Positions 1 to 7,126 of a stretch of DNA of 22,536 nucleotides are shown here, one piece after another. Numbering within the stretch: the first letter of the stretch is position 1; each line of letters begins with the position of its first letter. This stretch comes from a virus. The notes under the pieces are model-generated. The model saw nothing but the letters and a program-made list of their open reading frames with translations, did no database searches and was not told where the DNA came from. The stretch is from the UHGV virus genome UHGV-0277527; one strand, 5' to 3'. Both the position numbers and the translations under genes were made by a program.

Positions 1-797
1 AAATTTGATAATGAGATATACTTACTGTAATGTGAATCATCACTAGAACCAAAGTTGCTTACAAGCATACCGTTATCATTATAATATCCACTCTCAAAAA
101 GAGTAATATCTGAAAGCATGTTGAATACGCAACCGCATCCATCTATAATTTTTTGCTTTGCCCTCTCAAATGTTTCATCGAAATTTTGAGGTATAATTAA
201 TGTTTTTTTTATGCCATATACCTTACCTGGAACTCCAATTATTTTTTTGTTGCTATTAAATGCCTCTTTTATTCCTGCTTGAATGTAGTTAGAGCAGTCA
301 ATATCTGATGTATTCCCATTAATGTCTGGCGGTATGAAATCATCAAAAGAAAGTGTTTCCCTTAATTTAATTAATGATGTCGTGCCTTTTGCATTGTTTT
401 CACTCTGAATGAATCCTATATATTTTGAACCATCGTTTCCAGACAATCTTTCTTCAAGCTGATCAGGGTCATACTTCAGCACATTAGGGAAATAGAATTG
501 CTGAGCACCATATGCATCATAAATAGCCATAGAGTGGCCTTGCACAGTTACGAACTTGGCAATCTGTCCGTTATATACAGGATAACCAGCGGCGTTAATG
601 ATGATTGGCTGCGAAACAGGAACGTGAGAACCGTCTTCATTCTCTACATAAACCTGAATCTGGTTTTCAGGATTTACCGGATCCGTGTCAATTTTTCCGA
701 TATAAATTTTGCCATTGGCATTTGCTTTAAACGAGCGAGCTAAAGTAAATAACTGACTTGGTTGTGAAACAACTACGTTGTATAATTGTTCTGGCAT
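1..797 (-). CDS. Tailspike protein, N-terminal part (P22 gp9-like head-binding domain, then a divergent AT-rich receptor-binding region); 3' end lies beyond the window
   Basis: Minus-strand translation from the ATG at 797-795 gives [59 protein letters not shown]...[27 protein letters not shown], which matches the P22 tailspike head-binding domain as I recall it. The frame stays open to position 1. Not in the ORF track because the stop is outside the window. Confidence 0.85.
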
Positions 798-819: not shown

Positions 820-1320
820 ATGAGTAAGAGACGTCACGAGGTAGTAACTCGGGAGCGCCTTATGGAGGTTCTCGATTACAATAAAGAAACAGGAATTTTC
901 ACTTGGAAAAAGAAATTAAGCGCCAGAGGTGCTGTTGGGAAAGTTGCTGGCACAATTTCTTATGGATATAACGCAATTAATATTGATGGCGTAAGATATT
1001 TTGCACATAGACTTGCCTGGCTGTATGTATATGGCGAATGGCCCAAACAAGAGATTGACCACATTGATAGAAACAGAAGAAATAACGCAATCTCAAACCT
1101 TAGGGATGTCAGCAGAGTCGTAAATGCATTAAATGTCGGACCTCGAAATAGCAATGCTGGAATCAAGGGGTTAACTTTCTGTCAAGCCAGAAATCAATGG
1201 CAAGCTCAGATAAATGTCTCAGGTAAAAACATAACCCTTGGGAGATTCAACACCATTGATGAAGCGGCTATAGCTTATAAGGCAGCAAACATGGTTGCTG
1301 ACCATCTGTTGAGTAGGTAA
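820..1320 (+). CDS. Free-standing HNH homing endonuclease (HNH_3-type motif plus AP2-like DNA-binding domain)
   Basis: Track ORF 778-1320; the start is better placed at the ATG at 820, preceded by GGAG (MSKRRHEVV...). HNH-like motif [21 protein letters not shown]; C-terminal [43 protein letters not shown] resembles an AP2 domain. The gene is AT-rich and antisense to its neighbours. Confidence 0.75.
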
Positions 1321-1388: not shown

Positions 1389-1411
1389 AAAAAAACCCAG
1401 CCGAAGCTGGG
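1389..1411 (-). terminator. Rho-independent terminator downstream of ant (hairpin CCCAGC-TTCG-GCTGGG followed by a T-run on the minus strand); may act weakly in the plus direction for the HNH gene
   Basis: Plus strand reads aaaaaaa-cccagc-cgaa-gctggg; on the minus strand this is a GC stem with a TTCG loop followed by 7 T. It lies about 20 nt past the ant stop. Confidence 0.6.
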
Positions 1412-1430
1412 TCGTTGCGTTGGTTATCTG

Positions 1431-2333
1431 TCAGTAATTATGTACTGAAGGAGGTAATTCTTTATTCTTAAGTCTCATCCATGCGGAAAGATTCGTTGGT
1501 CCGTCTGGCTCATTGATATCAACATCTCGTGTGTGATTAATTAAAACGTCTCTCGCTATATCGATAATACGGGAGAACTCATAACCGCAGTCATGACATC
1601 TGCCGGAATAGTTCGATTGAATTTGTTTTAATGCCGGATACAGTTCGCGGAATAATGCCTGTGAACGGTTGGCATAATCCCATAACCATACAAGGCTGTT
1701 TGCTTCTTTTGCAGAAAGCTCGTTGGTTTTCTTCTCTTGTTTGCCAATGAACTCACCTTCAAGCACTACCCTGTGGATGTACTCTACGGCTTGCGGTATC
1801 TGAGATGCATCAAGCTCTTCAATACTTTCCACATTGAAACGCTGATGAATCATTGCATAAGCTTCTGGGTACATTAGATGCTTTTTGCTGACCAGCATAT
1901 TTACAGCATCACGAAGCGGAGTCCTGTCATCAACAGATGTTTTCTTACGTGCATTTTCTGCCTTTCCCTTTGTCCAGTAGTCATGCAGCACAGTAAAGCA
2001 TTCTTCCTGGTACTGAATCAGTTTATCGCGGATGTCAGCACGAACTTTCTCAGGGTTGATGCTGAACAGCCACCCATTTAACTTCTTCAAAGGAAGGCAG
2101 AGTAACTTACGAAGCTTCCCATCAGCGGCAACCATGTTCATATGAACACAGTTGAATTTGCTAATCTGCTTCATGAGTTTTGTTTGCTGCGTTGACCAGC
2201 TCATTCCAAGGTTTTCAACGATTGGCTTCATCGCAACATATGCAACTCCGGCAGCCATGGCGGTGATAATTTGCTGACCGTTGAATGGTACGTAAGAGGT
2301 GTTCACTGCTTCTAAAATTGCTATACTATTCAT
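1431..2333 (-). CDS. ant: Antirepressor Ant (P22 immI)
   Basis: Track ORF 1431-2399; the start is placed at the internal ATG at 2333-2331 ([21 protein letters not shown]...), giving 300 aa as in P22 Ant, with GGAGA 7 nt upstream. Near-identical to P22 Ant as I recall it. Confidence 0.9.
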
Positions 2334-2334
2334 G

Positions 2335-2405
2335 TTGGTTTTTCTCCACGGATTTACTGACAACCGAAGCCCTGACTGTTCCCGCAGTTGGGGCTTCAAC
2401 TTTAC
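2335..2405 (+). ncRNA. sar: Candidate sar antisense RNA (about 70 nt, complementary to the ant RBS and the arc-ant junction)
   Basis: P22 is known to encode a 68-69 nt antisense RNA at this position. On the plus strand there is a -10-like TATACT at 2322-2327 inside the ant 5' end, and an imperfect hairpin (aagccctgac...gttggggctt, 2365-2398) followed by caacttt. Boundaries are approximate and inferred. Confidence 0.35.
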
Positions 2406-2921: not shown

Positions 2922-3341
2922 TTAGTCTTGCTTTGTTGATGGCATAAGAGATGCGTTTGCCTCTTTTGGCTTCAAGGTATACATCCCACCATTAAAAGGA
3001 TCTACAGCAAGCCAACCAATTAACCCACCAAACACAAGGTTTCCACCAATATACCAGCCATTAGCATTGGCTTTGATTGGCAGGGTAACTGGTTCGTACC
3101 CATCCTTTTCCATAGTGATCTGGTAGCTCTTTTTGCCAAAATAACTACCATCTGACTTGGCAAGAGTTACTCCTTGCGGGGTCTTACCTTGCGCAACAAT
3201 CACGCCTGATTCGTCTTTTACCTTAAAGCTCGCACCGGAAGGATTGCTGTTCACTTGCACAAGCTGCGTTTCGTCACCAACAATAGTTGCGCACCCAGAT
3301 AACAATATAGCGCCAGCAACGACGCCAATAATCCTCTTCAT
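2922..3341 (-). CDS. Predicted outer-membrane lipoprotein with a PEGA-like beta domain and a glycine-zipper-like hydrophobic C-terminus; accessory gene of unknown function
   Basis: Track ORF 2922-3353. Signal peptide with lipobox (MKRIIGVVAGAILLSG|C, Ala at +2). PEGA-like stretch SNPSGASFKVKDESGVIVAQGKTPQGVTLAKSDG...MEKDGYEP. C-terminal GWYIGGNLVFGGLIGWLAV. The start could be 3353 or 3341. Visibly AT-rich compared with the structural genes. Confidence 0.6.
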   Translation of the reverse strand: MKRIIGVVAGAILLSGCATIVGDETQLVQVNSNPSGASFKVKDESGVIVAQGKTPQGVTLAKSDGSYFGKKSYQITMEKDGYEPVTLPIKANANGWYIGGNLVFGGLIGWLAVDPFNGGMYTLKPKEANASLMPSTKQD

Positions 3342-3458
3342 ATCAATTTCCATATTTAAAAAACCGGAAACATCCTAATGACAAACCATTCAAATGTGAA
3401 GTAGGCAAAAGATGTTTACTTTTTTCATGGTATCCTGCTCAAAACTAAGGAGGTTGTC

Positions 3459-3872: not shown

Positions 3873-5714
3873 TTACTGCTGTGTTGCCTCAGTAGCAAGC
3901 AGCGGCCTGATGGCATTTGCAGCGTTACTCAACGCTCTTTCATAGGCTGGCGTTCCAGCTTTAGTGTTTGCCAGACGTAAGAGAGCATTCCTTGCTGCTT
4001 TGGACTCATACAAGCGCATCATTGCACCAAAACCAGCCTCAAGCCCCATTGATACGCCAAGGGTCGCAGTTGCGCCAATCGTCCTTATCCTGTTGGCTTG
4101 CGATTGCCCCGTCTGAGTTACTACATTTGCGGTGTCTGACCTTGCTGTTTGCTGTAGAACTTCATGAAGAGCATCAAGCTCTTTCATGTGCTTTCCAGAA
4201 AAAATAGTGTTGTAAATTTCACCGCCTGACTGAGATTTCAGCTTATTAACTTCAGTGATGAACTTGGCTGGAGAGTCCCCGGCCTTTTCCGCTATTTTGC
4301 TGACGTAAGCTGCACGCATAGCATCTTTCCCTTTATCATCCAATGCGCTCCAGATTCGTTTCACGTCAGATGGTTTTCTGCTTAATACAACAGTATTTAT
4401 AAGTTCAGGACTGGCTTCACTGCTTGCCTTGTTGAGCTTGTTAGCAATGTTTTTATTAAGCACCTTATTATAAACGTTTGCATAATCGGAATTTGCTTTA
4501 AGGTATTTTGCTGCGTCTGACGCACCGAGGTTTTTTGCAACTGCGTTACGAAGGTCTTTTGACATTGCATTCTCTACCATATTGGTAGCTGCTTTTGCCT
4601 GGTTGGGGAAGACCATAGCATCTCCCTGAACATTAGATCTAAATGCTGTTCTGTGCTGACGCAAGAGATCAAACGTAACATCCAAATCAGTTGCAGGGTT
4701 TGCTAATTCTTCACGCAGGTTACGCAAGGATGTAAGCAGGCTTTGATTGGCAGACGTCCCAAGCCGTTCCTGTCTTGCGATCGCTGTATTCAGAGCATTC
4801 ATGGTATTTGTGGTATCAACTGCGGCATTACCCATTTTATTGGTGACGTCATTGATAACAGCGCCAGCGGCATCCTTCCGCCCCCTTAACGTGGTGGTAA
4901 GAGACTTCACCACATCATCAGGGTTGTACTCACCAAAACGGTCAAAATAATTGCTTACCAGCTTACTACGCGTTGCATATTGCTCAGCTCGCTTTGAGCC
5001 TGTCCCGAGCAAAGCCCCCTCAGCATCCTGAGTAAGTCCGCGAGTGAAAGCATTTTTCGGCGGGATAACATCAGATGTCATTGGTGTCACGCCCATCGAT
5101 TCTGATGTGGCAATTTTCTTCACCACTTCTGGCGCAATATCACCTTTTATAGCCGTTATTCCACGCCCTATTCCCTTTGCTGCTGCGGAAAGAACACCCT
5201 GAGCGGCAAGGTTAACTCCGGCATTTTTAGCTGCATTTTGTGCGAAATCGCCTTTCTGATTTGCGGCCTCTGCCAGTGATCCAATAGCCATGCTTCCTGC
5301 CGTTCCAACTCCTGGAACTAAATACCCGCCAATTGTTTCTCCAGCTTGCGCATAAGGGTCTGTCGGTCGCTCGACAGGGCGATAAACATCATCCAAAACC
5401 TTGGGGCCGCCAAGCCCCTGGCTGATTGCATTAATCAGACTTGCGCCCCCCTGCAATACGTCAAATGGTATGTTTACCAGACCACGACCAGCCTGTTCTG
5501 CAATTTGCCCTGCACTTTGACCACCTGTGAGCCAATCACCAGCTTGTTGCATCAATGATGGTTCTTCCCGTGTTGGTGCATTATTGGCCTGATTAACTGT
5601 TTGTTGCTGAACAGCCTGACCAGCAAAATACTCATCAATGGCGGTGCCAATATCTTCGGTGCTCGTACCATCAGGAAAGGTAAATGTCTTACCGTTTGCA
5701 GTTACTTTCATCAT
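3873..5714 (-). CDS. 16: Ejection (injection) protein gp16
   Basis: 613-aa ORF beginning (M)[33 protein letters not shown], matching the P22 gp16 N-terminus and length as I recall it. Start overlaps the upstream stop (ATGATGA). Confidence 0.85.
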
Positions 5715-7126
5715 TCCACCGTAAATTGAATGCCTGATTTTGAGGTATATGGTCCAACCTGATTCCGTGGTTCTCCTGAAGGTGTCGAATCTTGTGCTGG
5801 CGCTGCGTCAGTATTCATTGACATATACCGCTTAACGGCACTCCCCAATGATTCACCTTTTTTAACATCCAACCCCAATATCTGACCGCCATTACGCGAT
5901 TGTCCAGGGTTGCCATTCGCGCTCATCCACTCGGCTTTAAACTCATTAAACTGCGCGTTTCGTCGCTCAAGGTTTGCCATTGCATCAAGCCATCTTGCGA
6001 CCGTCTCAGGGTTATCCATGTCAGTTGGCGCACCCTGTCGAACGATCTCAACGTCTTTATCCGTTGCTGGTCCGGGAGGTAGGAATTTAAGAACCTGACT
6101 GTTAACAAGGGCATTTTGGCGAATGCGCAAATCACGCAATGTTGTATCGCTTCCGGTAAGTTTTGCGAACATGTTCTGTGCGTTACCGAACAAACCTGTC
6201 GTTGGTTTTTCTGCTCTGAACTGTTGAGCAAGCGCACTCATAGAATTGGCTGAGTTTGATGATGCTGTAGCATTGTTTACAGCCGTCTCGATGCCTTTTT
6301 CCATGTTTACTGACAGCTTAGGTGCTTCGCTAATCAACTGCTGAGCCTTTTCCTGCGCTTGCTGCATCTTAAACCCGAACTCTTGCTGATCCAGAGCTAA
6401 GCGTTGTGCTGCGATATTGTGCCCAGTCATTGCTGACTGATAGGAAAGGTTTTGCCCTCTCGCCTGAAGTGCTTCTCCTGCCTGATTGCTGCGGATTGTC
6501 TCTGCCAGCCTGCCTCGGTCAATTTCACGACCAGCCATCTTGTCCTGAACAGCAAACGCCTTTTCTGGACCAAGTGCACCGAGAGACATAGTAGTCAGCA
6601 TGTGTGATAGCTGCTCTGGATTCTGGATACCTGTCTGAATCATCCAGTCAGCATTAGCACCAACGCGATTTAACCTGTCCTTGTTGTCAGTAATGAATTT
6701 ACTGTAGGCTTCCGGTCCCTGAGAAAGAGCGACGTTAGCCCTCATGGCTAAATCGCCCATATCGTTGCGTTGCTGATCATTAAGACCGGAAAACGCCTGT
6801 TGTGCCTGTGCAACAAACGCTGGATTTTCCTGGGCAAACTTAAATAGTCCCGATGGATCACCAGAAGCCCATGCATCAGCGTGAACCTTATTGAACACAC
6901 TAATAGCTTTCTGTTGCTGTTCCTGATTGTAAATATCAGCAACTCCAGCCAGACCACGTAACGCGGTCAGGCCAACGTTATTTGCACCTGAGCGAGCCAG
7001 TTCATTGTTTTCGCGGATCAGACCAAGCGTTGCGTTAATGTCGCTTGCCTTTGGCGCATTCTCATTTTGCGTACCGATGCCAGCCAGAAAACCACCAGAA
7101 TTAATACCCTGTTGCCACGTAGCCAT
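5711..7126 (-). CDS. 20: Ejection protein gp20
   Basis: 471-aa ORF; its size and its position between gp7 and gp16 match P22 gene 20. Confidence 0.8.

Follow-up and report, generated by a model that had tools for sequence, protein, structure and literature searches.

A probable P22-like tailspike gene combining a conserved head-binding domain with an AT-rich, predicted beta-helix receptor module

Results and discussion

Genomic context and full-length relatives

The gene running off the left end of the 22,536-nt window (the whole stretch of viral DNA analysed here, UHGV-0277527) very probably encodes a two-module tailspike, in which a P22-type head-binding domain is joined to an AT-rich beta-helix receptor module that has moved as a cassette between P22-like backbones. 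On the minus strand, positions 797..1 form a stop-free frame of 265 codons (plus two bases) that is cut at the window end, and sequence similarity and gene context largely support reading this frame as the beginning of a tailspike gene that belongs to a P22-like (Lederbergvirus) temperate phage or prophage of E. coli. The window holds only 152 residues of the receptor module, and properties of the remainder are deduced from relatives; the window's own copy could be truncated or broken further downstream. A database protein identical to the first 220 amino acids is encoded on a 22,520-nt contig, suggesting that the cut is most likely a contig end.

The whole window aligns to the coliphages HZ41, APC_JM3.2 and IME10 at 95–96% identity and to P22 at about 84% identity, over 52–59% of its length. 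The tailspike gene lies 3′ of the ant/immI region at the end of the late operon, with a P22-like virion gene set upstream (84–96% identical to P22-like phages); further upstream on the same strand come an Arc-family gene and the complete P22-like series of ORFs for ejection proteins, tail, head, portal, terminase and lysis. The antirepressor gene ant (1431..2399, minus strand; Pfam P22_AR_N E 3e-45, P22_AR_C E 1e-28) typically precedes the tailspike gene in P22-like phages, and the gene order ant, (HNH), tailspike, int is common to Kapi1 and to two relatives of the window's gene, L001 and L004. In both of these relatives int and the tRNA-Arg gene argW are located 3′ of the tailspike gene, a side that the window ends before reaching. 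A terminator-like hairpin follows ant upstream of the tailspike gene (1394..1413, minus strand; GACCCAGC-TTCG-GCTGGGTT and then TTTTTT). Positions 1317–1400 are 97.5–100% identical to HZ41 and epsilon34, in which a terminator is annotated, and this stretch overlaps the hairpin only at 1394–1400. A promoter scan returned no more sites than were present in shuffled sequence.

The window departs furthest from Kapi1 and P22 in the ant/immI region and the sequence just beyond it. Minus-strand ORFs in or just beyond this region occupy positions 2623–2901, 2922–3353 and 3873–5714, and include 92-aa and 613-aa ORFs without a Pfam match and a 143-aa ORF with a weak PEGA match. The 613-aa ORF occupies the position of a P22 gp16-type ejection protein.

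A protein search with the 152 receptor residues recovered one truncated 199-aa protein, P0001, which is encoded in P22-like E. coli prophages adjoining int and argW and with flanks 99.9% identical to E. coli. Searching with the distal 405-aa ORF led to an intact 631-aa protein, P0002, from other argW prophages, and the 265 amino acids encoded in the window share 96% identity with P0002. The full gene, which the first-pass annotation had suggested obtaining by extending the sequence to the left, could thus be recovered at its full length of 631 aa from relatives, while a megablast search with window positions 1–470 gave no match in 5,426 complete E. coli genomes. Many copies are present at NCBI under no other name than 'phage head-binding domain-containing protein [Escherichia coli]', for example WP_250111890.1 and WP_225386969.1. 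These uncharacterised prophage proteins, together with the P0002 cluster, resemble the window's protein in a receptor domain that is 99% identical and in a length of 631 aa, but differ in their head-binding variants (MTDITANVV..., MSDITANVV... and MSNIVPNVI...), in lacking the HNH gene in some cases or carrying a different one (41% amino acid identity), and in several cases by a frameshift at an A tract.

Domain boundaries

Codons 1–113 (459..797, minus strand) constitute a P22-type head-binding (particle-attachment) domain, matching Pfam Head_binding PF09008 over profile positions 1–113 of 113 (E 5.4e-65). PDB matches to Sf6 gp14 (7sg7, E 2e-62) and P22 (8tvr, E 1e-47) align over about residues 4–118 only. 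These profile and structure matches bear out the first-pass proposal that the 5′ codons correspond to the head-binding domain of P22 gp9. The head-binding DNA is 85–97% identical to that of Kapi1, N7, CUS-3, Sf6 and others, and similarity is lost at window positions 441–459 in all 38 phage records with megablast matches. A seven-gene alignment of 5′ ends shows identity falling from 0.8–1.0 to 0.3–0.5 at the joint against Kapi1, CUS-3, Sf6 and APC_JM3.2. Codon 113, the Q of YDPDQ, occupies window positions 459–461, placing the joint at 458/459; the landmark ...NVLKYDPDQ had been called exactly, and the accompanying estimate of about position 480 was 20-odd bases off. Codons 114–147 (357..458, minus strand) make up the AT-rich start of the receptor module, a linker or neck following ...YDPDQ that is recognisable from the end of DNA similarity, the GC change point and low model confidence at residues 79–145.

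The YDPDQ joint is an ancient module boundary common to all P22-like tailspikes. A two-module design with a boundary at about residue 115, and exchange of the receptor domain, is textbook knowledge for P22-like phages, whose tailspikes are conserved over amino acids 1–115 and have unrelated C-terminal parts (PMC2629481; PMC10408124). Like the window's protein, P22 gp9, Sf6 gp14 and the HK620 tailspike possess the PF09008 domain (residues 1–113 are about 90% identical to Sf6 and slightly less so to P22), a boundary at ...YDPDQ, a gene located after the ant region and a beta-helix of similar length (631 aa in total here); they differ in showing no detectable similarity past about residue 115 and in having catalytic residues that cannot be aligned. 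Kapi1 (MT813197), an argW-type P22-like temperate phage, shares with the window an identical first 101 nt of the gene, the end of ant and an HNH gene whose product is 99.4% identical at the amino acid level to Kapi1_066, but its 792-aa tailspike has an unrelated receptor domain with a GC content of 0.415, and similarity stops at the YDPDQ joint. CUS-3 also fuses a P22-type head-binding domain to a foreign module at the same boundary; its module, however, is an endosialidase belonging to a different fold family and without sequence similarity to the receptor module described here.

Base composition

GC content falls from 0.406 over gene nt 1–342 to 0.319 over nt 343–797 (Fisher p = 0.011, computed from this short fragment only), and GC3 decreases from 0.36–0.40 before the joint to 0.25 after it. 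The AT-rich shift reported after ...NVLKYDPDQ in the first pass is therefore real, and a plot of GC across the gene, the check suggested for it, is non-uniform with a maximum-likelihood change point at about window position 429. For the rest of the window the mean GC is 0.484 and the lowest 455-nt stretch has a GC of 0.391. The full-length relative gives the same contrast at greater length, with 0.427 in the head-binding part vs 0.334 in the receptor part over 1,554 nt. As a control, the receptor parts of four other P22-like tailspikes from E. coli/Shigella phages (Kapi1, APC_JM3.2, CUS-3 and Sf6) have GC contents (0.415–0.446) equal to those of their head-binding parts, which indicates that the drop is specific to the receptor domain in the window. 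This module is compositionally foreign (GC 0.33 vs 0.48 for the phage) and far more deviant in composition than other domains at the tailspike locus, the receptor parts of these four Lederbergvirus tailspikes lying at 0.42–0.45 vs 0.33 here.

Receptor-domain homologues in other phages (48–53% identical) have GC contents of 0.41–0.44 without a drop, and are thus not the source of the AT-rich version. A low-GC donor of the E. coli version was not found in a profile scan of genome contigs based on a six-sequence alignment, which recovered four loci: Xenorhabdus, a Burkholderiales MAG, a Lentisphaeria MAG and Paenibacillus.

The gene is located at the extreme end of the window, and N, I, S, F and Y, residues that favour AT-rich codons, are abundant in beta-helix domains. 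It could accordingly be proposed that the AT-rich part arose as a chimera during assembly, or that its composition follows from the amino-acid make-up of a beta-helix without any foreign origin, but we consider either extremely improbable. The identical joint sequence recurs in at least five independent assemblies (L001–L005) and in many NCBI E. coli proteins, and the assembly chimera was rejected on this ground. The amino-acid explanation is contradicted by the concurrent fall in GC3 and by the absence of a drop both in four other P22-like beta-helix tailspikes and in the homologous domains of other phages. The preferred reading is a compositionally foreign receptor module, and the earlier interpretation of a joint between two modules stands, in that a conserved head-binding domain is followed by a receptor region that comes from another sequence family and has an aberrant base composition.

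Cassette exchange and the recent crossover

The receptor-part DNA is 99.1–99.6% identical to that of L001, L004 and L005 (453 of 455 positions in the case of L001), whereas the head-binding parts of the same genes are only 83–86% identical to the window. The occurrence of a near-identical receptor domain on head-binding variants this divergent is direct evidence of cassette exchange. In all, one receptor domain is joined to at least three anchor variants, beginning MPEQLYNVV..., MTDITANVV... and MSNIVPNVI....

Mismatch mapping establishes a mosaic pattern and locates a recent crossover zone inside the head-binding coding region (524..696, minus strand; gene nt 102–274). Compared with Kapi1, the window has no mismatches over gene nt 1–101 and then a difference about every 9 nt. 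Compared with L001, it has 62 differences in nt 1–141, six in nt 142–274 and none from nt 275 to the joint, the whole of the sequence from nt 275 onwards differing by two substitutions and an A-tract indel. Judged from these patterns, the recent exchange crossed by homology inside the head-binding coding region, upstream of YDPDQ. The first-pass annotation had viewed the joint as the recombination point for host-range switching, which fits its status as an old module boundary but not the recent crossover, placed within the head-binding coding region at window 524–696. Mechanistically, the 5′ crossover uses homology within the conserved head-binding coding sequence, and the 3′ crossover would presumably use the conserved int/att region, which lies outside the window (int is seen in L001, L004 and Kapi1).

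An HNH endonuclease gene upstream of the tailspike gene

A free-standing, homing-endonuclease-like gene with HNH_3 and AP2 domains (820..1320, plus strand; Pfam HNH_3 E 2e-16, AP2 E 9e-5) occupies the interval from ant to the tailspike gene, in antisense orientation to the late operon; 22 nt separate it from the tailspike start. After Kapi1_066, the next-best phage relatives of its product are HNH genes of T5-like, Klebsiella and Salmonella phages at about 46% identity. Between about positions 697 and 1550 the window differs from Kapi1 (L006) at three positions in about 850 nt, and this patch of near-identity is centred on the HNH gene, reaching from about 120 nt before the end of ant, across the terminator, to nt 101 of the tailspike gene. 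On either side of the patch the window diverges from Kapi1, by about 10% in the head-binding region and by far more in ant. We speculate that the patch is a mobile cassette with co-converted flanks, as would fit a homing element. The stronger proposition, that the HNH gene actively homes and that the resulting repair tracts are what drives tailspike exchange, seems improbable to us; if it were true, with breaks stimulating co-conversion, homing elements would promote swaps of host-range cassettes in temperate phages.

The Kapi1-like patch ends where the mosaic switches toward the lineage carrying the window's receptor domain. Relatives L001–L003 have a different HNH gene (41% amino acid identity) at the same spot between ant and tailspike (L001 9486–9974), and L004 has none there (5900–6001).

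Fold, family and distribution of the receptor module

Codons 148–265 (plus two bases; 1..356, minus strand; GC 0.30–0.33) hold the most conserved motifs of the receptor family and, according to an AlphaFold model of P0002, would form an N-terminal cap helix and the first beta-helix rungs up to the cut at the window end. The model has a capping helix at residues 169–182 followed by short beta strands, with pLDDT values of 84–93 at residues 150–260 and 85–93 over about residues 150–470; it is a monomer built from 10 aligned sequences with a pTM of 0.58, in which the head-binding domain and linker are badly modelled. On the basis of this model the fold class can be assigned as a right-handed parallel beta-helix, predicted to have the same architecture as P22 but to belong to a different sequence family. 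The difference from P22 is thus one of sequence family, and presumably of specificity, rather than of architecture. The closest folds to the model are nearly all enzymes, many of them capsule depolymerases of Klebsiella and Acinetobacter phages. The modelled fold also led us to reject two other spike types, namely an endosialidase and a spike of the esterase or SGNH type.

Sequence searches place the receptor part at a distance from characterised families. A Pfam scan of its 518 residues at E ≤ 10 detected no beta-helix family and no P22 tail family, and the best chain in a PDB sequence search had an E value of 1.6. The C-terminal fold, which the first-pass annotation had recommended identifying, was consequently provided by the structure model as a beta-helix, the Pfam and PDB sequence searches having given no usable match. 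The same annotation had noted no resemblance to the P22 endorhamnosidase domain, in agreement with PDB matches that end at about residue 115 and with the Pfam result; high-identity alignment of the downstream region to P22 gp9, which would have contradicted it, did not appear, phmmer alignments to the P22 tailspike chain stopping at residue 115.

The profile phrog_8280 'tail spike' is matched with E 2.1e-83 (283 bits), the best stretch aligning query residues 230–459 with profile positions 384–613 of 632; its label, 'tail spike protein with colonic acid degradation activity', is an inherited annotation. The tailspike itself does not reach the gathering threshold of PF12708 (Pect-lyase_RHGA_epim) and has no match to it at E ≤ 10, and its homologues P0007–P0009 (38–40% identical) pass that threshold with E values of 1e-11 to 4e-7. 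Together with the fold, this indicates that the tailspike is a divergent PF12708 relative by transitivity rather than a scored member. The N-terminal DFGA.GDG..DD motif of the phrog_8280/PF12708 superfamily is degenerate in the window's protein. Two glutamates located beyond the window, E258 and E281 in receptor numbering (E371 and E394 in the full-length protein), show no variation among 30 family members and lie 23 residues, or one coil, apart; in these 30 members the W and H of an IQDWH motif show hardly any variation. We infer from this conservation that E371 and E394 are candidate catalytic residues.

Relatives of the receptor module form a small beta-helix family, itself uncharacterised, whose members are found on different anchors in phages of unrelated types. 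An exhaustive search from the anchor-less homologue P0007 recovered only about 50 cluster representatives at E ≤ 1e-30, and distant relatives of the receptor domain (37–53% identical) carry other anchors. Within the group that is 50–53% identical, one homologue (L014 8001–9767) directly follows Baseplate_J in a myovirus-type cluster and another (L015 8001–9992) is one of several large spike genes in a 154-kb phage that also has T4-type neck genes, indicating that the receptor domain crosses phage morphotypes. A relative in a Xenorhabdus prophage has a head-binding domain, and further distant relatives occur in the MAGs and the Paenibacillus genome named above. Among 50,697 phage records, a tblastn search with the 152 receptor residues gave no match and one with the receptor domain at E ≤ 1e-3 gave no coliphage matches; sequenced phage isolates contain no relative of the receptor domain above about 25% identity. 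This receptor-domain type is new among sequenced phage isolates and uncharacterised, with no homologue that has been characterised by experiment, a novelty that we regard as modest.

Inferred function and target

By analogy with P22, Sf6 and HK620, residues 1–113 would dock the spike onto the tail, while residues 114 to about 631 (to 265 in the window) would form a trimeric right-handed beta-helix that would bind, and most likely cleave, a host surface polysaccharide, thereby bringing the particle to the outer membrane. Polysaccharide binding would in turn set the host range. Formation of a homotrimer and polysaccharide cleavage are suggested by the modelled fold and the invariant E371 and E394, and a glycan specificity different from that of P22, as proposed in the first pass, is presumed.

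Arguing for a module that binds a glycan without enzymatic activity are the failure of searches to find a catalytic motif of a characterised family and the absence of a match to PF12708. This is nevertheless very unlikely in view of two glutamates and an IQDWH motif that have stayed invariant or nearly so across a family diverged to 26–53% identity, and of closest folds that are nearly all enzymes. All P22-like tailspikes known to have been tested biochemically are enzymes, which also counts against a role in binding alone.

With regard to the target of a putative cleaving spike, we lean towards O-antigen, by analogy with the spikes of P22, Sf6, HK620 and Kapi1, which bind and cleave this polysaccharide (PMC2629481; bioRxiv 10.1101/2021.04.09.439263; PMC10408124). 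A less probable but still plausible target is a capsule or exopolysaccharide (K antigen, colanic acid) instead of LPS O-antigen, as in CUS-3, whose endosialidase tailspike targets the K1 capsule. The phrog_8280 label refers to colanic acid degradation, CUS-3 provides a precedent for pairing a P22-type head-binding domain with a capsule depolymerase, and many Klebsiella and Acinetobacter phage capsule depolymerases are among the closest folds.

An A8 tract and the integrity of the gene

Codons 196–198 (IKK) contain an A8 homopolymer (203..210, minus strand; gene nt 588–595) that is in frame in the window. A8 is also the length found in L004 and L005, and is the in-frame length of intact 631-aa alleles. 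L001, L002 and L003 have an A7 tract, resulting in a 199-aa product and a separate 405-aa ORF. The A7 form occurs on two head-binding backgrounds (P0001, P0157) and an A9 form (207 aa) on a third (P0162). This distribution points to repeated change in tract length, whether by a hot spot of mutation that inactivates the prophage spike time and again, by decay of the prophage or by sequencing error in the homopolymer. The tract may instead act as a slippage-prone on/off switch for spike production.

As frameshifted alleles (A7 and A9, over three backgrounds in total) are common among relatives, part of the gene population is non-functional, and the window's gene is cut past codon 265. We nonetheless doubt that its copy is a decaying prophage remnant or pseudogene rather than a working tailspike gene, given that all 265 codons are open, the A tract has the in-frame A8 length, and the P22-like virion and lysis ORFs in the rest of the window are complete as a set, normal in length and about 95% identical to the isolated phages HZ41, APC_JM3.2 and IME10. 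The identical 220-residue database protein on a 22,520-nt contig likewise suggests that the cut reflects a contig end. We thus continue to favour a working tailspike gene.

Implications

The locus extends a well-described pattern in P22-like phages and leaves current understanding unchanged. Its value is as a clean, base-resolved example of cassette movement, with the old boundary at YDPDQ and the recent crossover upstream of it. The receptor domain is absent from complete E. coli genomes yet nearly unchanged on several P22-like prophage backbones from draft E. coli genomes, making the serogroup of their hosts worth identifying. Since the receptor domain of its tailspike determines the surface polysaccharide on E. 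coli that a phage is able to use, any new type of domain could serve as a depolymerase or as a reagent for typing.
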